The notes under the pieces are model-generated. The model was given only the letters and a program-made list of their open reading frames with translations, was not told the origin of the DNA and ran no database searches. 58,439 bases of DNA, from the NCBI GenBank assembly GCA_945876305.1, contig CAMCOB010000001.1, forward strand, positions 1-58,439, written 5' to 3'. Position numbers and translations under genes: made by a program. Origin of the DNA: Bifidobacterium breve (GTDB taxonomy: Bacteria > Actinomycetota > Thermoleophilia > Miltoncostaeales > Miltoncostaeaceae). This document shows positions 1,676-52,861 of this stretch, one piece after another (the first letter of the stretch is position 1; every line of letters begins with the position of its first letter).

Positions 1676-2271
1676 TTCTCAGCCAGAACCTGGTCGAGGG
1701 GCACAGTGATCTGCCGAAGTTCGGTGACCTGCCCGGTGATGTGGAGGGCAATACGGCCCCGCTTGTCGATGATGTAGGTCTCGGGCACTCCTGTGGCCTC
1801 AAGATCGCGCTTACTGGCATCAGTGCCGTCACGCAGCGATGGGTACGTGATGCCGTTTTCGCGAAGGAATGCCAGAGCATTCCCGCTGAGGTCCTGAAGG
1901 TCGAGACCGAGCACCAGGGCACCCTTGCCCCTGTAACGCTCCCACGCGGTCTCGAAGATGGGGGCCTCGTCGCGACAGGGGCCGCACCACGACGCCCACA
2001 GGTTGAGCACCACGGGGGTGCCCTTGAGCGACGACAGCGACACCCGTTGCCCGGCCGGCGGAAGCCCCGGACCGCTCACGAGAACCGGGAGCGTGATGTC
2101 GGGCGCGGGAGGCCGTTGCCCTGAGACCAGTGCATCGTCAATCGCCGTTCTGCCCCCGCTGGCGGCGAGGCCCACCACGAGCAACACGATGATGAGCAGC
2201 GCCGCGACCCCGCCCGCAATGAGCCCGATCAGGCGCCGGCGGTCTGAACCGCTGTCGTCGGCCTCGACCAT
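1672..2271 (-). CDS. TlpA/ResA/CcmG-family membrane-anchored thiol:disulfide oxidoreductase
   Basis: Contains the thioredoxin motif WASWCGPCRDE and an N-terminal TM anchor (LIGLIAGGVAALLIIVLLVVGL). I chose the internal ATG at 2271 (MVEADD...), which overlaps the upstream stop by 1 nt (TGATG). The ORF-track extension to 2394 lies inside the upstream gene. Confidence 0.85.
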   Translation of the reverse strand: MVEADDSGSDRRRLIGLIAGGVAALLIIVLLVVGLAASGGRTAIDDALVSGQRPPAPDITLPVLVSGPGLPPAGQRVSLSSLKGTPVVLNLWASWCGPCRDEAPIFETAWERYRGKGALVLGLDLQDLSGNALAFLRENGITYPSLRDGTDASKRDLEATGVPETYIIDKRGRIALHITGQVTELRQITVPLDQVLAEK

Positions 2272-3545
2272 CAGCCGAACGGTGCGTAGATGGCGCGTGC
2301 GGTACCGAGCAGTGAGGTACCGAGGATGGCCTGCATCCCGCCCCTGATGCGACGGCTTGAGGGCACCTTGGTCCACTTGCCGGCGCCACGCCACACGGCG
2401 GCGCCGCGGTCAAACCGCACCACGGCGCGGCGTGACGCCACAACCGCAGTGGCGCCAATGGAGAGCGCCGCACCGCTTCGGGCGCGCCCGCCAGCCGTCG
2501 GCGCCACGATTCCCATGCGCGCAGCGGGCACGCCGGATACCCGCACGGCCGAGGGCTCGCCGATAAGCGAGAAGCCCCCACCGGCATCGAGGCCGACGTA
2601 GGTGCCGCCGGTACGGGAGTCAGCGGTAAACAGCAGGTCACCTGCGCCATTGCTGCCGTCAAGCGTCATCCCCGAGAGGCTGAATCCGCTGCCGTTCCCC
2701 AACCGCACGCCGGCTCCGGCATTCCCCGACACCACGCTGTCGCGAAGCCCGATACGCAGGCCGCCGCCGCCGATGAGCACACCGTTACGGGCATTGGACG
2801 ACGCGGTGACCCCAACCAGCGAGATATCCGACGTACCGGAATCCTCGCTGGCGATGCCATCAATCCCGTTGCCCGTCGCGCGAAAGTTGGTCACATCGAG
2901 CCTCGCCACATCGTCCGCCAAGCGTAGGCCATCCTGCCCCGCCCCTGACACCGAACCGCCGGTGATGGCATACGGGCCGGCTGCAGTCAGCGCCGCGAGG
3001 CGGATACCATCGCGTTTGGTCGCCGTGACCACTGCGTCGGCAATCACGATGCCAGTGCCCCCGGTGACCGCGATCCCATCCACACCAGCGCCGTCCACTG
3101 CGATACCGCGCAGCACGATGCCGCCCTCTGCATTCGGTGGCGTGACATTGACGCCGGTGCGCGACGCACCTCGGCACACGATTCCGTCGAGGGTCACTGG
3201 TCCACGCGTGATGTCAATGCATCCGCCGCCGGTGTCGTTGGTGCCGCCATAACCGGCAATTACGGCGCTGCCCGGGGGATCGGCCGCGACGGTGAGATTG
3301 CGCTGCGTGATTGCGGCGTCGCCATACGTGCCGGCCCCAATGGCGAGTGCCCACGGGCGCACGTCTGATCCACGCTGCGCCTGCACCGCACCGAGGGCGT
3401 CGCGAATGGCGTCGGCCCCCGATTTGGTGTCAATGAGCGTGCCCAACTCATCGCGTACCTCAACTGTGCCGGGAACCGGCGCAGCGCCCGCCGTGGCGGC
3501 TGCGACGGCAAGGAGCAGCGCTGCGGCTGCAATCCGGCGGGTCAG
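2271..3545 (-). CDS. secreted right-handed parallel beta-helix (PbH1) repeat protein
   Basis: Repeated G-x-D-G-I / N-G-V-L-I-type beta-helix turns run through the 391-aa ORF. The 33 in-frame codons upstream of the track TTG start (3446) encode TRRIAAAALLLAVAAATAGAAP, a classic signal peptide. The only plausible initiator there is CTG at 3545, overlapping the trpC stop as CTGA. The 5' end is therefore uncertain (3446 versus 3545). Confidence 0.7.
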   Translation of the reverse strand: MTRRIAAAALLLAVAAATAGAAPVPGTVEVRDELGTLIDTKSGADAIRDALGAVQAQRGSDVRPWALAIGAGTYGDAAITQRNLTVAADPPGSAVIAGYGGTNDTGGGCIDITRGPVTLDGIVCRGASRTGVNVTPPNAEGGIVLRGIAVDGAGVDGIAVTGGTGIVIADAVVTATKRDGIRLAALTAAGPYAITGGSVSGAGQDGLRLADDVARLDVTNFRATGNGIDGIASEDSGTSDISLVGVTASSNARNGVLIGGGGLRIGLRDSVVSGNAGAGVRLGNGSGFSLSGMTLDGSNGAGDLLFTADSRTGGTYVGLDAGGGFSLIGEPSAVRVSGVPAARMGIVAPTAGGRARSGAALSIGATAVVASRRAVVRFDRGAAVWRGAGKWTKVPSSRRIRGGMQAILGTSLLGTARAIYAPFG

Positions 3546-4336
3546 TCCGACGACCTCGCCGACCCGAGGAGCGCGCGCACAGACTCCCCGGTGTCATCGC
3601 TTCGCATCAGCATCTCGCCCACGAGGATTGCATCAACACCGGCCACCTCAAGGCGATCGACGTCCGCGCGCGACGTGATGCCGCTCTCGGCCACCACAAT
3701 TGTTCCGGCCGGCGCATCCGGCAGCAGCCGTAGTGCTGTCTCCGGATCCACCTCGAGCGTGTGCAGATTGCGGTTATTGACGCCGATGATCTCGGCCCCT
3801 GCTTCCACCGCGATCTCCATCTCCTCCTCGTCGTGCACCTCCACAAGGCAATCGAGGCCGACGCCCGCAGCGACCTCCTGCAACTCCACCAGCCGCTCTG
3901 GACTAAGGGCCGCGACAATCAGCAGGATCGCATCGGCGCCCGCCACCCGCGCCTCGAGGATCTGGTACCGCGTGACGATGAAGTCCTTGCGCAATAGCGG
4001 CAGGTCAACCGCCGCGCGCGCCTCAACAAGGTCATCCAGCGAACCCCCGAACCATGCGGGCTCGGTGAGAATCGAGCACGCCGATGCGCCGGCCTGCTCG
4101 TACGCCTGGACGATCTGAGTGACCGTGGCGTCGGGGCGGATGGGACCTTTCGACGGGCTCGCGCGCTTCATCTCGGCGATGAGCGAGATGCCCTCGGCAA
4201 TGAGCGCCTCGCTGAACGGGCGACTGCGCCCCGGCGCCGAAATCCGTTCACGCAGCGCCTCAACGGCCACCACCTTTGCGCGGGCATCGACATCAGCGCG
4301 GGTGCGTTCGATCACCTGGTCGAGAAACGTGGGCAT
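3542..4336 (-). CDS. trpC: indole-3-glycerol phosphate synthase
   Basis: MPTFLDQVIERTRADV...IAEMKRASPSKG...LRKDFIV..YQI.EAR..GADAILLI...NNRNL match TrpC motifs. I chose the internal ATG at 4336; the longer track ORF overlaps trpD. Confidence 0.9.
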   Translation of the reverse strand: MPTFLDQVIERTRADVDARAKVVAVEALRERISAPGRSRPFSEALIAEGISLIAEMKRASPSKGPIRPDATVTQIVQAYEQAGASACSILTEPAWFGGSLDDLVEARAAVDLPLLRKDFIVTRYQILEARVAGADAILLIVAALSPERLVELQEVAAGVGLDCLVEVHDEEEMEIAVEAGAEIIGVNNRNLHTLEVDPETALRLLPDAPAGTIVVAESGITSRADVDRLEVAGVDAILVGEMLMRSDDTGESVRALLGSARSSD

Positions 4337-36999: not shown

Positions 37000-37341
37000 C
37001 TAGGCGGGAGTGCTCTCGAACCGCTCTGTTGGCGCCTCCCGCCACAGGCGATCAAGGCGGTAGAAGTCGCGAGCTTCCGGCGTGAACACATGCACGACGA
37101 TGTCGAGCGCGTCCACCAGGATCCAGTCAGCCTCTTTTTCGCCTTCGACGCGGCGGATCTCCACGCCGTACTCCTTTTTGAGCACTCCACGGATCTCGGC
37201 GGCGATGGCCTTGGTCTGACGCGGGGTGCGCCCGGTGCAGATCACCAGGTAGTCGGTGTAGTCCACGATGCCGCGCATGTCGAGGATCACAATGTCCTCC
37301 GCCTTCTTGGCGTCGGCGAGCTCTGCGGCGATACGGGCAAT
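37000..37341 (-). CDS. rsfS: ribosomal silencing factor RsfS (iojap-like)
   Basis: DYLVICTGRTPRQTKAIA...DWILVDALDIVVHVF..EAR.FY.LD.LW. The track ORF starts at GTG 37290, but 17 more in-frame codons (IARIAAELADAKKAEDI) match the family N-terminal helix and contain no canonical start. The 5' end is uncertain (37290, 37332 ATC or 37341 ATT). Confidence 0.8.
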   Translation of the reverse strand: MARIAAELADAKKAEDIVILDMRGIVDYTDYLVICTGRTPRQTKAIAAEIRGVLKKEYGVEIRRVEGEKEADWILVDALDIVVHVFTPEARDFYRLDRLWREAPTERFESTPA

Positions 37342-37415
37342 TTCCTCGGTATTCGAGGGGTCTCCTCAATCGGAACGACGAATCCCTGCGAGGCTAGTCG
37401 GGGTGCGGCCCCCCA

Positions 37416-38003
37416 TCAAGACGCCGGGGCAGACTCCAGCAAATCCGCAACCGCCGCCGGCACCAGATGACGGATCGAATCGCCCTGCGCCAGGTACTCA
37501 CGAACCAGAGTGGACGACACCGGGACCTCGGGCATCTCCACCAGATCGACGCGGCCAACGGCGATGCCGCGGGCCACGTCACCCGCGGCGCTCGCATCGG
37601 CACCGGGACGCATGGCCACCGCGATGCGGGCAAGCGCCACGATGTCCTCGGGGCGGCGCCAGGATGCGAAGCCAGCCAGTTGGTCGACCCCCATCACAAA
37701 CCACAGATCCGCTCCCGGATACTGCGCTGCGATCTCCTCGAGCGTCTCGGCGGTGAATGTCGGGCCATCGCGATCGAGTTCGAGGTCGCTGGCCTCGAGA
37801 AGCGGATCATCGGCCACGGCGGCCTCCACGAGCGCCAACCTGCGCACGGCCGACATCGTTGCCCCATCAGGCTTGTGCGGGGGCGCCCCGGCCACAACCA
37901 GAAGCACGCGATCGAGGTGCAGTTGGCGGGCAGCCTCCTGGGCAAGCGCGATGTGGCCATTGTGCAGCGGATCGAAGCTGCCGCCCAGCATGCCGATTCT
38001 CAT
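37416..38003 (-). CDS. nadD: nicotinate-nucleotide adenylyltransferase
   Basis: GMLGGSFDPLHNGHIALA (the (H/T)xGH motif) and a C-terminal SSTLVRE. Confidence 0.9.
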   Translation of the reverse strand: MRIGMLGGSFDPLHNGHIALAQEAARQLHLDRVLLVVAGAPPHKPDGATMSAVRRLALVEAAVADDPLLEASDLELDRDGPTFTAETLEEIAAQYPGADLWFVMGVDQLAGFASWRRPEDIVALARIAVAMRPGADASAAGDVARGIAVGRVDLVEMPEVPVSSTLVREYLAQGDSIRHLVPAAVADLLESAPAS

Positions 38004-41967: not shown

Positions 41968-43617
41968 ATGGTAGCGACACCGGACCCGAAGTACCACACC
42001 GAAGGGGAAATCTCGCACCCACGCATCGCACGTATCGCCGGTATCGGGCTCCTGATCGCGATTTCGGGCACCTCGCAGGCCCTCGGGGCCAGCGGTGAGC
42101 TGCGCGTCGAGGCCGGGGGCAACCCGGACTTCCTCGACCCTGCACTGGCCCGGGACCCGCTCGCGTGGCAGATAATGGGAGCCACGCAGGGCGGTCTGGT
42201 GGCGTTCCGGCGTGCCGGAGGTACTCCGGGAACCACCGTGGTGCCAGACCTCGCCACAGCCCTTCCGGTCGTCTCGTCCAACGGTCTGACGCTCACCTTC
42301 ACGCTGAGGGATGACGTGCGGTTTGGCCCGCCCGCCTCGCGCGTTGCGCTGCCAAGCGACGTGAAGAGCAGCCTCGAGCGCATGCTCATCCTCGACTCCC
42401 GTGGCACCGCGCTCTACACCGCGATCGATGGCGCGCCGGCGGTAATCGCGGGGCGCACCCGACAGCTGTCCGGCGTCGTGGCCGACGACGCCGCACGTAC
42501 CGTCACCATCAGCCTCACGCGACGGGATCCAACGCTGGTGCAGGCGCTCGCGCTTCCATTTGCATCGGTTGTTCCCAAAGGCACCCGGGCGGTCGATCAA
42601 ACCGTTGACCCACCGGCGGGCCTGGGGCCGTACGCCATCTCGGCCTTCGAACCCGACCGGCGCATCGTTCTCACAGCCAACCCGGGCTACGTGGCGCGGG
42701 ACGGCCTGCCCGCTGGCCATGCAGCCGGCATCACCATCCGCCTCGGCTTCACACCCCGAGCTGCTGCGGCGCACGTCGCAGCCGGCGACGCCGACTACTC
42801 GGTAATGCCAATTGCCCGGTCGGCCACACGTCGCGGTGGCTATGCGGCCGGTGCCACCGCCAATGCCGTCACCGATTCGGCCACGGCGTACGTGGCAATC
42901 GACCCATCCCAGGCTCCGTTCACAGACCCTGGTGTGCGGCGTGCCGTTGGGCTGGCTCTCAATCGGTCCGTTGCGGCGGCGGCGATCACCACCGGGGCCC
43001 GTGCCGCCAGCCGCATGATTCCGCCCGGCACCCCGGGCAACCGTGAGGGAACCCGAGCGCCCGACCTGCGCACCGCACGGGCACTGGTGTCCGGGGCGGG
43101 GGCCACCGGCACCGCGGTAACGCTCTGGACGGGAACCGGATCCGCAGAGCGCGCCATCGCCCCGGCCGTGCGTGACGCACTTTCGAAGATTGGTCTCGTC
43201 CCAATCGTGAAGGCACTGCCAAAGAACTCGGGCCTCGGTCGCGCCGCGCCGCGTGCCGCGATTGCCACCGCCATGTGGACTCAGACACTCCCAGACGGAT
43301 CAGATGCCTATGCGCAGCTGCTGGGCACCACCGCTCCGGGCACGCCCGCCACCCCACCGATACCCGCCATCTCCGGCGATGCTGCCCTTCGATCGCGCGC
43401 CCGATCAGCCGCCAACGCGGTCCTCGGCACCGCGCGCGATTCGGCATGGGCACAGGTGGATGCCAGCGCGGTTGCCGACGGCCGTGTGGTGCCGGTCGCC
43501 ACCCCCGTCGCAACGGAGGTCACCGCACCCGGTGTGTCCGGTGTGACGGTGAACCCCGTGCTTGGAGTACTGCTCGGATCGCTGCAGCCCGCGGGCGGGA
43601 GCGACCGCGCGCGCTAG
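41968..43617 (+). CDS. ABC transporter substrate-binding protein, family 5 (peptide/nickel type), orphan
   Basis: Signal peptide IAGIGLLIAISGTSQALGA, then motifs typical of SBP family 5 (VPDLATALPVVSSNGLTLTFTLRDDVRF). No permease or ATPase genes are adjacent. Confidence 0.7.
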   Translation: MVATPDPKYHTEGEISHPRIARIAGIGLLIAISGTSQALGASGELRVEAGGNPDFLDPALARDPLAWQIMGATQGGLVAFRRAGGTPGTTVVPDLATALPVVSSNGLTLTFTLRDDVRFGPPASRVALPSDVKSSLERMLILDSRGTALYTAIDGAPAVIAGRTRQLSGVVADDAARTVTISLTRRDPTLVQALALPFASVVPKGTRAVDQTVDPPAGLGPYAISAFEPDRRIVLTANPGYVARDGLPAGHAAGITIRLGFTPRAAAAHVAAGDADYSVMPIARSATRRGGYAAGATANAVTDSATAYVAIDPSQAPFTDPGVRRAVGLALNRSVAAAAITTGARAASRMIPPGTPGNREGTRAPDLRTARALVSGAGATGTAVTLWTGTGSAERAIAPAVRDALSKIGLVPIVKALPKNSGLGRAAPRAAIATAMWTQTLPDGSDAYAQLLGTTAPGTPATPPIPAISGDAALRSRARSAANAVLGTARDSAWAQVDASAVADGRVVPVATPVATEVTAPGVSGVTVNPVLGVLLGSLQPAGGSDRAR

Positions 43618-45137
43618 GCCCCGGCGGGCTTCACGGCGGACCGGCTGCGAGTGGTGCGGGTACGCGAACGGCTCGCACCGCTCCCCGCGGCCCCACCACC
43701 AACCCGCGCACTCCCCGGTGCCAACGAGGCATCTGACTCCAGCGTGATCGAGATGCCGAGGTCCTCCTCAATCGCCGCCAGCACCGCGCTGTCGTCTGCG
43801 GTGAGGAACCCCATGACCTCCGGGTGAACACTCACGGCAACGGGCGACTCAGATGTGCCGGTAAGCGCCATGCGGATCTGGCGCTCGGCGTCAATGGCGT
43901 GGGTCTCGGCGCTCACAACGAATCCCTGCCCCCCGCATGTGGGGCAGTGGTTGGTCATGATCTCGCGGGCACCGTCACTGATGTTCTGACGCGTCATCTG
44001 CACCAGGCCGAGCGGCGAGATCTCCACCACGAAGGTCCGGGTGCGATCGTTTGCGAGTGCGTCATTGAGCGCCTGGGTCACCGCCCGGCGGTTCTTCGCG
44101 TTATCCATGTCGATGAAGTCGATAACGATGATGCCGCCGATGTCGCGCAGCCGCAGCTGACGCACGACCTCGGTAGCCGCCTCAAGATTGGTACGGGTGA
44201 TGGTGTCTTCGAGATGGGTGTTGCCACGCCCCACGTTCTTGCCCGAGTTGACGTCGATCACCGTCATGGCCTCGGTGTCATCAATCACCAGAGAACCACC
44301 GGATGCCAGTGGCACACGGCGGTTGAGGGTGGACCGGATGGCGTCCTCCACCCCGAAGTGCTTCAGCAACTGCCCCTCGCCGTCCCACACCTTCACGCGA
44401 TCGGCGAGTTCCGGAGACGTGCGTCTTAGGAACCCCACAATGCGCTCGTGCTGGCGGGCATCGTCCACGAGCACCTCATCAACGCTGTCGTTGAGGATGT
44501 CGCGGATGACCTTGAGCGACGAGTCGGCTTCGCTATAGAGCAGCGACGGAAGCGGCACCTGTGCTGACCGCTCACGGATGGCCTTCCACAGCAGGTTGAG
44601 CGATGCAAGGTCGCGCGCGAGCTCAGTGGCCGAGGCGCCCGCCGCCGCAGTACGCACGATCAGGCCTCCCCCATCGCGCGGCAGCTTCTTGCAGATGTCA
44701 CGCAGGCGGTGGCGCTCATCGTCATCAAGGCGCTTTGAGATACCGATGCCGTCACCGAATGGCACGTACACAAGAAACCGGCCAGCCAGCGACAACTGCA
44801 TGGTGAGTCGTGCGCCCTTGGTCCCCATCGGGTCCTTGACGGCCTGCACGATGACCTCGTCGCCCTTCTTGAGCATGTCGGCGATCAGGCGCTTCTTCTT
44901 GGGCACGCCCTCGGCCACCACGTCATCCACGTGGAGGAAGCCGTTCTTGCCGATGCCGACCTCGATGAATGAGGCCTCCATACCGGCAAGCACGCTCTCC
45001 ACGCGGCCCTTCCAGATGTGGCCCACAACTGAGCCCTTGCCACGACGCTCAATCTGCACCTCGGCGACGCGCCCGTCCTCAAGGATGGCCACGCGCGTCT
45101 CGGCGCGATCGATTGACACCAGAATCTGCTTGATCAG
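43614..45137 (-). CDS. rng: ribonuclease G/E family endoribonuclease
   Basis: S1 domain VGHIWKGRVESVLAGMEASFIEVG, the catalytic core IVIDFIDM and a Zn-link CPTCGGQG. The start is CTG at 45137 (CTGA overlap), GTG at 45119, or the far-upstream track start at 45269. Confidence 0.85.
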   Translation of the reverse strand: MIKQILVSIDRAETRVAILEDGRVAEVQIERRGKGSVVGHIWKGRVESVLAGMEASFIEVGIGKNGFLHVDDVVAEGVPKKKRLIADMLKKGDEVIVQAVKDPMGTKGARLTMQLSLAGRFLVYVPFGDGIGISKRLDDDERHRLRDICKKLPRDGGGLIVRTAAAGASATELARDLASLNLLWKAIRERSAQVPLPSLLYSEADSSLKVIRDILNDSVDEVLVDDARQHERIVGFLRRTSPELADRVKVWDGEGQLLKHFGVEDAIRSTLNRRVPLASGGSLVIDDTEAMTVIDVNSGKNVGRGNTHLEDTITRTNLEAATEVVRQLRLRDIGGIIVIDFIDMDNAKNRRAVTQALNDALANDRTRTFVVEISPLGLVQMTRQNISDGAREIMTNHCPTCGGQGFVVSAETHAIDAERQIRMALTGTSESPVAVSVHPEVMGFLTADDSAVLAAIEEDLGISITLESDASLAPGSARVGGGAAGSGASRSRTRTTRSRSAVKPAGA

Positions 45138-45994
45138 CTCTTCCCCTTCCGCCCCAGACGGGCGCGGATGAACGCCTTCACGGCGTCCTTCGGATCGATG
45201 TTCATATCGTCGCCGAGCCGGCGCGAAATACGCTCCGTCGCCGCGGCAAGTGCCACGGTCGAGGCCCATGCGACAGCGCCTCGCACCATCCAGCTGGGTG
45301 CGGGCACGATACGTGATGCGCCGCGGGCAACGATGCCCACGGCGATACCCGTTGCGGTCGCTGCGACCACCTCGGGAATGCGCTTGGCGGAAAGACCCTG
45401 CCCCTCGGCAGACCCCATTCGCACCACCATTGCGTGCTGGGCAGCCGCGCTGCCCGAGAACCAGTTGAGCGCGCCGGCGATTGCCGACTCCCGTGCGGCA
45501 ACGTCGACCAGGTGGCGATGCACCGGGTCTCGTAACGCCGGGTAGCGCCTGGCAGCGGGCACCATGCCCGTGCCGAGCGAGCGGATGACGGCCTGCATCA
45601 CCGCACTCACAGATGAATCGGACTCCAGATCGGGCACGAATGCCAGATCGCCGATCGTGACGTCGTCCTCGGCGAGCAACTCGCGCTCGATGCGGCCACG
45701 CTCATGCAGAGCGCACACGATGAGAACGAGCGTGCGATGGTTCTGCCGAGACCTGGCGGCAACTTCGAGGGCGGCGGCACGGACATCGTCACCGGCGCCC
45801 AGCGGGATAACCAGCAGGGTGGCTGCAGTCCGGTCGCCAACGGGTACGCCGAGCATCCCCGACAGCCGGCCACCCAGTACGGGGCTCGTCGGCAGGATCG
45901 CCATCACGCCGCCGTCAAGGGCCTGCTCATGATGCTCGCGGGTGTCCTTGGCCACGCGGTTGACTCGCTTGGCCAGCGTGGTGATGGCGCCCAT
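45134..45994 (-). CDS. hypothetical protein between rodA and rng (C-terminal half DUF697-like, tentative)
   Basis: 286 aa. The ATG abuts the rodA TAG with 0-nt spacing. The C-terminal hydrophobic segments (IPEVVAATATGIAVGIVARGASRIVP...RGAVAWASTVALAAATERI) resemble the DUF697/YcjF layout as I recall it. The N-terminal half has an alpha/beta pattern without a P-loop. Confidence 0.55.
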   Translation of the reverse strand: MGAITTLAKRVNRVAKDTREHHEQALDGGVMAILPTSPVLGGRLSGMLGVPVGDRTAATLLVIPLGAGDDVRAAALEVAARSRQNHRTLVLIVCALHERGRIERELLAEDDVTIGDLAFVPDLESDSSVSAVMQAVIRSLGTGMVPAARRYPALRDPVHRHLVDVAARESAIAGALNWFSGSAAAQHAMVVRMGSAEGQGLSAKRIPEVVAATATGIAVGIVARGASRIVPAPSWMVRGAVAWASTVALAAATERISRRLGDDMNIDPKDAVKAFIRARLGRKGKS

Positions 45995-49693: not shown

Positions 49694-50566
49694 TCAGCCG
49701 GCTGCCCTCCGTCGCGCAGCGGCCGACTGCGGCGTGAGCACGGCGACGTCAGCCAGGGTGCGCACATCAACGTAGGGCGTCACCTGAATGGTCTGGAACG
49801 TATCGACATCGCGTGATCCGACCCCGGCCACCAGCCCCACCGCGATACCGCGCGGGAACACGGACGGAAGTCGCAGATCGGCCGAGAACCCGGCTGTGCG
49901 AACGATGCCGCCCGGCTTCACGCGGAAATCGCGCGGCACGCCACCCATCATCAACTGCCCGCCCACTGTCGGACGAAGAACGCCCAGCGCGCCACCAGAC
50001 CCATCCACCGTGGCGCCCACGCGGATGGAGGCGTCGGTGATGAATGTGACAACCGATGTGAAGGCCGAGGCCTCGGTGATGATCCCCACAAGCGCGGCAC
50101 CGGGCGCCGCACCGCTCACCACCGGGCTGTTCACCACGATGCCGTCAGAGGTCCCGGCGCTCAGGGTGGCGCGCGCGTACCAACTGGTGGGCGAGCGCCC
50201 CACAACTGATGCAACAACCGACTTGTAGCCCGAAGGAACGCTCCCATCAATGCGTAGCAGCGTCCGAAGGCGGGCGATCTCGGCCGATTGGTCGGACAGC
50301 GCCAGAACGCGCGCCTGAAGCGCCGCATTCTGTGCCTTCAGATCCTCATTCTGCCCGCGGGCATCCACAAGCCCAGTAACCCAGCCCCAGCCATCGCGAA
50401 ATGGTTGCGTCGCGCGCTCGGTAATTGATTGCAGTGGCATCGCTGCTGATCCCGCCATCTGCTGGGCGCCGTGCAGCGGGCCGCTGCCGGACTCGCGGAA
50501 ATACACCGTAAACACGATGAGACACAGGGCGATGAGGCCGCCGATCACCCCGCGCCGAATCATCAT
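49694..50566 (-). CDS. mreC: rod shape-determining protein MreC
   Basis: N-terminal TM helix, a coiled coil (LKAQNAALQARVLAL) and beta-barrel domains (PVVSGAA...GIITEASAFTSVVTFITD). Confidence 0.85.
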   Translation of the reverse strand: MMIRRGVIGGLIALCLIVFTVYFRESGSGPLHGAQQMAGSAAMPLQSITERATQPFRDGWGWVTGLVDARGQNEDLKAQNAALQARVLALSDQSAEIARLRTLLRIDGSVPSGYKSVVASVVGRSPTSWYARATLSAGTSDGIVVNSPVVSGAAPGAALVGIITEASAFTSVVTFITDASIRVGATVDGSGGALGVLRPTVGGQLMMGGVPRDFRVKPGGIVRTAGFSADLRLPSVFPRGIAVGLVAGVGSRDVDTFQTIQVTPYVDVRTLADVAVLTPQSAAARRRAAG

Positions 50567-51860: not shown

Positions 51861-52445
51861 TCAGGCGGCCGTCCCCCACGGGGCGAGGCCGGCGTCGTCC
51901 AGCAGCAGCCCCAACGCACCGATGGGGAGGCCGATAACGGTGGAGGGCTCGCCCTCAATGCCCTCGATCAACGCCCCGCCTGCGCCCTGCACGGCATATG
52001 CCCCCGCACGGCCTTGCCACTCCCCGCGCCCGAGGTACCAGCGAAGTACCTCATCGTCGATCGGCCGCATCCGCACGGTGGCCCGGGCAAGGCACTCATG
52101 CTCACCGTGAGCGGTCACCAGCACCAACCCGGTCATCACCGTGTGCTCGCGCCCGGCGAGCGCCTGCAGCATGCCGCGCGCATCAGCCTCGTCGGCCGCC
52201 TTGCCAAGTGCGATGCCATTGAGCACCACCTCGGTATCCGCGCCGAGCACAGCGCCGCCACCCGGAATACCCACCCGACCGGCCACGTCGCGCGCCTTGC
52301 CGCGTGCATGGGCCATCACGCGCTCCTCTGCCGGCAGCCCGGGATCGCTGTCCTCGGCCTCGTCGGAGGCCACGACGCGAAACGTGATGCCAAGCGCCCC
52401 CAGCAGCCCACGCCGCTGGGGGGAGCGCGAGGCGAGGATGATCAG
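51861..52445 (-). CDS. maf: Maf-like nucleoside triphosphate pyrophosphatase
   Basis: The Maf motifs GADTEVVL and GAYAVQG lie in the track ORF. The family N-terminal motif [18 protein letters not shown] is encoded in frame upstream of the first canonical start (GTG 52373). A CTG at 52445 overlaps the ndk TGA (CTGA). Confidence 0.85.
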
Positions 52446-52861
52446 CCGAGCAGCTCCGACGCGGCGAAGTGGATGCCCAGCTCGCGCGCGGCACTCTCGG
52501 TGCCGTCAGAGCCATGAATCACGTTCTGACCCAGGTCGAGCGCGTAGTCACCGCGGATGGTCCCGGGCGCGGCATCTTGCGGGTTCGTCGTGCCCATCAT
52601 CATGCGGCACGCGGCGATGGCACCATCGCCTTCGATGGCCATCATCACGACCGGACCCGAGGTGATGAACTCCACCAGCTCGGCGAAGAACGGTCGGTCG
52701 CGGTGCTCGTCGTAGTGCTCCTCGGCGGCCGCGCGTGTCATGACCGTCTTTTTGAGCCCCACCAGCTGAAAGCCGCGGCGCTCGAATCGGGCGATGATCT
52801 CGCCGGAGATCCCGCGCGCGGTCGCGTCGGGCTTCACCATCACAAAGGTACGTTCGATCAT
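52442..52861 (-). CDS. ndk: nucleoside diphosphate kinase
   Basis: [10 protein letters not shown] and NVIHGSD (catalytic His). The ATG start overlaps the upstream stop (ATGA). Confidence 0.95.

Follow-up and report, generated by a model that had tools for sequence, protein, structure and literature searches.

Stop and start codons that overlap as NTGA form the commonest prokaryotic stop/start arrangement and are tied to tight translational coupling, which is explained either by termination-reinitiation or by unfolding of the RNA (PMC12548453; PMC6728339); the debate over reinitiation versus de novo initiation at overlapping genes is unsettled (PMC12548453). Near-cognate start codons are a second described phenomenon, and in E. 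coli CUG initiates at 1–2% of the level of AUG (bioRxiv 10.1101/063800). Here, we analyse a 58,439-nt stretch of DNA (contig CAMCOB010000001.1 of assembly GCA_945876305.1; hereafter ‘the window’, meaning the whole stretch), in which trpC and the gene for a beta-helix protein meet in the sequence CTGA, and in which the downstream gene appears to start at the CTG. CTG is an allowed start codon in translation table 11.

The junction resembles the described −4 NTGA termination-reinitiation systems (Huber et al. 2019, PMC6728339; PMC12548453) in joining co-directional genes of an operon, in having a start codon that shares two bases with UGA, and in having a Shine-Dalgarno (S-D) motif within the upstream open reading frame (ORF); the overlap is conserved in 37/37 sequences. 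It differs in that the described cases are ATGA, GTGA and TTGA, whereas here N is C, a state that is conserved over a deep clade and recurs in the genome. With near-cognate starts (Hecht et al., bioRxiv 10.1101/063800) it shares a CUG at a conserved N-terminus and an S-D motif upstream. However, near-cognate starts in E. coli are exceptional, at 1–2% of AUG, whereas the CUG of the window is evolutionarily stable, swaps with UUG, and is found in 2–4 genes per 58 kb. CUG starts and NTGA coupling are each known, and what is new is their recurrent, conserved combination in one lineage; neither conserved CTGA junctions nor actinobacterial CTG starts are specifically described in the literature that we searched, an absence that is not proof of novelty. 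We conclude that a secreted beta-helix protein is probably made from the CUG at 3545–3543, by termination-reinitiation after trpC and with the assistance of a GAGG motif.

The trpC/beta-helix junction and its conservation

The upstream member of the proposed coupled pair is trpC (3542–4336, on the minus strand, as are all features described below), which encodes indole-3-glycerol-phosphate synthase (IGPS); its product matches the Pfam IGPS profile with E = 7.6e-87, covering profile positions 1–254 of 254. The 3′ end of trpC reads ...GCG AGG TCG TCG GAC TGA, with the stop codon at 3544–3542. The reading frame of the beta-helix gene is open from 3593, the preceding in-frame stop being a TGA at 3596–3594. 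An earlier note on this DNA had claimed that the 33 codons of this frame ahead of a TTG at 3446 include no ATG, GTG or TTG; all of its coordinates hold on re-reading of the sequence, and the count of canonical starts in the 49 open codons ahead of that TTG is indeed zero. This TTG (3444–3446), the first canonical start, is what gene callers choose. Its product is 391 amino acids long and, as the note had stated, lacks an export signal. The proposed start, CTG at 3543–3545, shares its TG with the trpC stop, giving the CTGA that the note had pointed to and a −4 overlap between co-directional genes. The 33 codons from CTG to TTG 3446 encode LTRRIAAAALLLAVAAATAGAAPVPGTVEVRDE; read from the CTG, the frame gives LTRRIAAAALLLAVAAATAGA followed by APVPGTVEVRDE, and then LGTLID... 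at TTG 3446. The full preprotein coding sequence would span 2271–3545 (424 codons plus stop).

An S-D-like GAGGT lies within the 3′ end of trpC (3553–3557), its GAGG core (3557–3554) being 8 nt before the CTG; an S-D-like motif inside the upstream ORF at functional spacing is a mark of −4 coupling. GAGG is present at the same position in 34/36 sequences readable there, and L025 has GCGG. The motif includes an AGG codon for Arg in trpC, and only 3.4% of the Arg codons in 20 window genes are AGG. The use of so rare a codon argues that the motif is kept as a Shine-Dalgarno sequence.

A protein search yielded 33 relatives, and we compared the DNA of 36 loci with a readable junction with that of the window. 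The loci belong to metagenome-assembled genomes (MAGs), most of them of lake origin, that carry the labels Thermoleophilia, Miltoncostaeaceae or Actinomycetota. The record titles of L013 and L020 name Bifidobacterium, and that of L012 names Acidobacteria, despite a Thermoleophilia-type locus; these are probably mislabelled or contaminated bins. An NTG overlaps the trpC TGA in 37/37 sequences (the window and 36 loci). The distance from this NTG to the G of an invariant PGTVEVRD is exactly 25 codons (26 in L033 and L038), and 35/37 sequences are free of indels in the signal-peptide region. N is G in 17 sequences of a distant clade, at 50–54% identity to the window protein, T in two (L003 and L029, at 69% and 59% identity), and C in 18 (the window and 17 loci; 15 distinct), at 63–99% identity. 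Sequencing error as the source of the CTG is ruled out by the 15 distinct CTG-bearing sequences, which come from independent assemblies.

Relatives at 50–60% identity are called at full length (for example, MIRRxGxxxxALLIA...PGTVEVRDE) and align residue for residue with the CTG-initiated window sequence. The earlier note had named orthologues that uniformly start at the equivalent of 3446 and lack a signal peptide as the finding that would speak against its proposal; the comparison gave the opposite, with orthologues called from a GTG or TTG at the CTG-equivalent codon and carrying a signal peptide of 21–22 residues. The closest relatives of the window protein, by contrast, have gene calls that lack the N-terminus, each beginning at a different internal codon, and the P0001 cluster (391 amino acids) contains 114 member sequences called at the TTG start. 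It is not rare for 33 successive codons to lack a canonical start by chance. The junction is nevertheless more than chance, since orthologues with canonical starts begin at exactly the CTG-equivalent codon and have the same signal peptide.

In a neighbour-joining tree of the mature part of the protein only, the GTG sequences form the outgroup, the TTG-bearing L029 is basal to the other clade, and all CTG sequences fall in one large clade, within which L003 (TTG) is nested beside L026 and L027 (CTG). This placement shows that the CTG state is old, has been stable over a long divergence, and has been exchanged with TTG at least twice. CTG has persisted across a clade that has diverged to ~63% protein identity.

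The stretch that would be lost with a start at TTG 3446 includes the predicted signal peptide, residues 1–21 (3483–3545), which reads (M/L)TRRIAAAALLLAVAAATAGA with predicted cleavage after A-G-A. Its features were assessed by rule only, for the n-, h- and c-regions. The n-region carries a charge of +2 (R3 and R4); the h-region, IAAAALLLAVAAA, has a 13-residue Ala/Leu/Val core; and the c-region is A19-G20-A21 followed by A-P, with small residues at −3 and −1. The rule for Sec export and cleavage by signal peptidase I asks for a charged n-region, an h-region of 7–15 residues and small residues at −3/−1, all of which are present. The maximum Kyte-Doolittle mean over 10 residues is 2.91 in the window and 2.2–2.9 in every orthologue sequence examined. 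The Sec-type signal peptide proposed in the earlier note is therefore borne out by rule, and it is kept across orthologues. In an AlphaFold2 model, residues 1–19, or more narrowly 2–15, form a low-confidence helix ahead of the folded domain. The peptide has the positive n-region, Ala/Leu/Val h-region and A-x-A site common to Sec-type (signal peptidase I) peptides of monoderms and no lipobox Cys; it is itself ordinary, and only its start codon is unusual. Two other types of export signal were considered and rejected: a Tat signal peptide, since orthologues have RH, RG, RC or LR in place of RR and no F-L-K follows, and a lipoprotein signal peptide, since the orthologue alignment has no conserved Cys within the first 30 residues.

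The signal-peptide region has the substitution pattern of coding sequence. For codons 2–25, Nei-Gojobori dN/dS (the ratio of non-synonymous to synonymous substitution rates) is 0.2–0.6 among CTG lineages, and dS, at 0.4–1.0, is similar to that of the mature region in the same pairs (0.65–1.37); for the window and L030, dS is 1.02, dN 0.23 and omega 0.23. Minimum changes by codon position in the signal peptide are 12/14/34, third positions being the most variable. The mature part is under strong purifying selection, with dN/dS of 0.04–0.28 among CTG lineages. An untranslated spacer with about one substitution per silent site would not be expected to show such a pattern.

Of the possible starts, the overlap codon alone keeps its position across the sequences. 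Depending on the lineage, the first in-frame canonical start is codon 7, 11, 17, 21 or 33, usually a Val within the hydrophobic core, and the GTGs in that core differ between lineages. The equivalent of TTG 3446 is GTG, GTC, AAC or GCC in other lineages, and in the window a start there, the first canonical one, would remove the whole signal peptide.

The beta-helix protein and its operon

The encoded protein matches Pfam Beta_helix (PF13229) with E = 3.4e-7 and 30.5 bits, above the gathering cut-off of 25.9, and has no match in NCBIfam. The AlphaFold2 model, built with 29 orthologues, has a mean predicted local distance difference test score (pLDDT) of 83.5 and a predicted template modelling score (pTM) of 0.84, and consists almost entirely of beta strand in a long parallel beta-helix. 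In a Foldseek search of the PDB it matched only secreted, periplasmic or virion polysaccharide-active beta-helices of the epimerase, lyase and depolymerase classes (AlgE4, AlgG, RbmB, pectate lyase and tailspike depolymerases), with E = 5e-6 to 1e-3 and a template modelling (TM) score of ~0.5 for the best match. It shares the right-handed beta-helix fold of the AlgE4 A-module (2pyh), AlgG (4nk6), RbmB (9ozl) and Pel9A (1ru4), but at 10–16% identity the likeness to these enzymes is at the level of fold only, and the C-terminal ~90 residues are family-specific. This conserved C-terminal module ends ...LGTSLLGT....YAPFG and has no counterpart among Pfam or NCBIfam models. Two cysteines, Cys109 and Cys124, are invariant across the family. 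The protein looks to be extracytoplasmic, and hence in need of an export signal, because of this invariant Cys pair, its secreted or periplasmic structural neighbours, and the ResA/DsbE-like and CcmH genes downstream.

The gene order is trpE, trpG, trpD, trpC, beta-helix, resA-like, ccmH, DUF72, and the junctions are, in this order, GTGA, TAGTG (TGATG in relatives), a gap, CTGA, TGATG, GTGATG and GTGA; save for the short trpD-trpC gap, these are overlaps of −4 or −1. The other −4 junctions of the operon are canonical in all loci. Downstream, the beta-helix stop and the ATG of the ResA/DsbE-like thiol-disulfide oxidoreductase gene (2269–2271; NCBIfam ResA/DsbE) share 1 nt (TGATG), which extends the proposed chain of coupled genes. 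In L001–L003, the loci for which gene calls were read, trpE-G-D-C likewise precede the beta-helix gene. The beta-helix gene always lies between trpC and the ResA-like/CcmH pair, a neighbourhood that is strictly conserved.

Other CTGA junctions in the window

We scanned the window for NTGA junctions flanked on either side by a coding-like frame. The earlier note had referred to the beta-helix gene as a second, independent case in which a functional N-terminal element needs CUG, and the ndk-maf junction at 52445 indeed has the same CTGA arrangement, conserved in relatives. Here, ndk occupies 52442–52861 and maf would occupy 51861–52445, with the CTG (52443–52445) overlapping the ndk stop. Maf family profiles align from residue 2 of the CTG-opened product. 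With the first canonical maf start, GTG 52373, the product would be 24 residues shorter and would lack SPQRR, a motif found without exception in the complete Maf N-termini of the alignment. The ~60 closest Maf relatives in the database are all called 15–45 residues short; more distant relatives start MI(L/V)LASRSPQRR. Four loci at 67–78% identity (L040–L043) all read C-CTG-ATC-(ATC/CTC)-CT(C/G)-GCC-TC(G/C), with CTGA and no canonical start, and in a fifth, at 59% identity (L044), maf begins with GTG after a 31-nt spacer. Although any base would be synonymous at the N of the maf CTGA, a four-fold degenerate site in the last ndk codon, C is found there in 5/5 sequences. No S-D motif lies near the maf CTGA of L043. 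The comparison gives solid grounds for regarding the ndk-maf CTGA as a second CTG start in the window.

A third CTG start is probable at rng (43614–45137), which encodes an RNase G/E-family protein and whose CTG (45135–45137) overlaps the stop of an ORF at 45134–45994. That 286-residue ORF gave no family match. Translated from the CTG, the rng product begins LIKQILVSIDRAETRV, and its residue 4 aligns to position 4 of the RNase G profile NF008689. The CTGA and the peptide LIKQILVS are conserved in L048 (around 17273) and L049 (around 10114). Against a CTG start, a GTG six codons downstream is a possible alternative. At the mreC-mreD junction, a CTGA (49695–49697) with GGAGG 8 nt upstream is a possible CTG start for mreD. 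The match to the MreD profile begins at residue 33; judged by these profile coordinates, a full MreD could equally be made from a GTG at codon 19. The junction reads CTG-AGC in the window and L048, versus GTG-AGC in L049.

The claim that every CTGA junction is a start is false, as the junction between the DUF72 stop and an SHC-like gene (321–324) shows. This is a chance CTGA, not a start, and can be used as a negative control: in the SHC-like gene, an ATG lies 33 codons further on and gives MRRALAIIVLATMAAAPPLATG followed by SPLE, a normal signal peptide. The DUF72/SHC-like junction was read at 324 of the window and around 6124 of L001; in distant relatives it is ATGA or GTGA. In the 58 kb of the window, a CTGA start appears to be needed by a minimum of two genes and probably by three.

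The interval between nadD and the RsfS domain (37290–37418) presents a different irregularity. The nadD stop overlaps an ATG (TGATG), which opens a 16-codon leader ending in TGA 37368–37366, in frame with the RsfS domain directly after (GDPSNTEEIA...). Relatives of rsfS at 74–91% identity have the same leader uninterrupted and an RsfS of 138–149 amino acids (L045, L046 and L047 were compared). L045 (88% identity) has an in-frame TGA at the same leader codon, and in L047 rsfS is preceded by a 13-codon upstream ORF whose stop overlaps with a TTG start (TTGA). In the window, neither a canonical nor a CTG start is available ahead of GTG 37290, and initiation there would cost part of the family N-terminal region; rsfS would need UGA readthrough or non-canonical reinitiation.

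Routes of initiation and their consequences

In the model that we favour, a ribosome finishing trpC would terminate at UGA 3544–3542, and the ribosome or its 30S subunit would be held by the GAGG 8 nt upstream. It would then reinitiate on the overlapping CUG with initiator tRNA, the first-position C:U mismatch being tolerated. The product would begin Met-Thr-Arg-Arg, enter the Sec pathway and be cleaved after Ala-Gly-Ala. The use of CUG as the start is well supported by the orthologue comparison. We infer reinitiation as the route because CTG starts associate exclusively with −4 overlaps, and we also infer that initiator tRNA decodes the CUG and that the weak codon sets a low ratio of beta-helix protein to TrpC. 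As to origin, the ancestral codon was probably GTG, replaced by TTG and then by CTG through a T-to-C change. That change is synonymous in trpC (GAT to GAC), and GAC is the preferred Asp codon (64% of Asp codons), so codon bias could have driven it if coupling tolerates CUG.

The same CUG might instead be used by ordinary de novo initiation, with 30S subunits directed by the S-D sequence, trpC translation playing no part and the IF3 or initiator tRNA of the lineage being permissive. We consider this unlikely, although the GAGG motif is good and well spaced (8 nt before the CTG), and a lineage-wide change of this kind is conceivable given that, in E. coli, altering the conserved G-C pairs of the initiator tRNA anticodon stem lowers discrimination against CUG (PMC11497404). 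The rsfS gene of the window, which also lacks a canonical start, is not at a −4 overlap. However, the CTG starts of the window that we rate as solid or probable all coincide exactly with a −4 stop overlap, the trpC overlap is invariant (37/37 sequences), and the maf CTGA of L043 has no S-D motif nearby to direct a 30S subunit. Moreover, a scan of open upstream extensions, which was not exhaustive, found no free-standing CTG start. The window-wide survey of starts used a crude gene filter based on G+C content at third codon positions that missed the beta-helix gene itself, and we claim no genome-wide rate of non-canonical starts.

The remaining alternatives dispense with the CUG. If the start codon had decayed, only TTG 3446 or internal codons would be used, the protein would be cytoplasmic and probably non-functional, and the signal-peptide stretch would be a relic. 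TTG 3446 is the first canonical start, is picked by gene callers and has GAGGT 10 nt upstream, but that GAGGT is made of conserved V-E-V codons, and the internal start varies by lineage (codon 7, 11, 17, 21 or 33). A relic would not keep its frame, its 25-codon length, its hydrophobicity and a dN/dS below 1 while dS is ~1, nor would decay leave the mature part under strong purifying selection with its invariant Cys pair; we regard this account as very improbable. Initiation at AUU 3533–3531, four codons in, which the earlier note had itself ranked below CUG, is harder still to credit. Bacteria are known to start weakly at AUU, which in E. coli falls in the 1–2% class with CUG (bioRxiv 10.1101/063800), but the ATT (3531–3533) is confined to the nearest relatives of the window, and in all other CTG lineages, including relatives at up to 93% identity, its equivalent is CTT (L005, L006, L007, L010 and L025), CTG (L008, L009, L026, L027 and L028) or CTC (L030). 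It also has no S-D motif at a suitable distance, and a start there would lose the Arg-Arg n-region; we therefore reject it. A TrpC/beta-helix fusion, made by a −1 ribosomal frameshift where trpC ends, can be practically dismissed: the beta-helix frame is −1 relative to trpC and stays open over the 16 codons ahead of the CTG, which favours such a fusion, but ...TCG GAC TGA contains no slippery X XXY YYZ heptamer, no significant RNA structure lies downstream (z = −0.34), outgroup orthologues have a plain GTG or TTG start at the CTG-equivalent codon, and an internal signal peptide behind a cytoplasmic enzyme makes no biological sense.

Several points weigh against reinitiation from the CUG itself. 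The start assignment comes from sequence comparison, and the data fit reinitiation and ordinary S-D-led initiation alike. CTGA alone is not diagnostic, as the chance occurrence at 324 demonstrates, and since 42% of third positions are C, gene ends will often carry CTGA by chance. Masking of the start site by RNA structure was considered and rejected, the 121-nt local fold being unremarkable (z = −0.34). CUG initiation complexes are less stable in E. coli than those on AUG, GUG or UUG, owing to the first-position C:U pair (PMC11497404), and output of the beta-helix protein could consequently be very low. The initiator tRNA and IF3 genes are not in the window, where the only tRNA is tRNA-Ala.

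More broadly, we see an even chance that in this Miltoncostaeaceae/Thermoleophilia lineage CUG is a regular, maintained reinitiation codon at CUGA overlaps, serving several unrelated genes: the beta-helix gene, maf, rng and perhaps mreD. If so, either the start codon matters little to a post-termination ribosome that is already on site, or the initiator tRNA or IF3 of the lineage discriminates less against CUG. Because standard gene callers never consider CUG, proteins encoded after CUGA junctions would be systematically truncated at the N-terminus in all MAGs of the group, at the cost of signal peptides and catalytic motifs. Every database copy of the beta-helix protein in the clade of the window is called 30–33 residues shorter than the CTG-initiated form, and so looks cytoplasmic; close Maf relatives would likewise have lost their conserved N-terminal motif. 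Secretome and functional inference for abundant freshwater actinobacteria would inherit this error. GTGA, TTGA and CTGA form a natural series at one homologous site, with independent replicates at maf and rng, which would make relaxed start-codon choice by a terminating ribosome a directly testable question.

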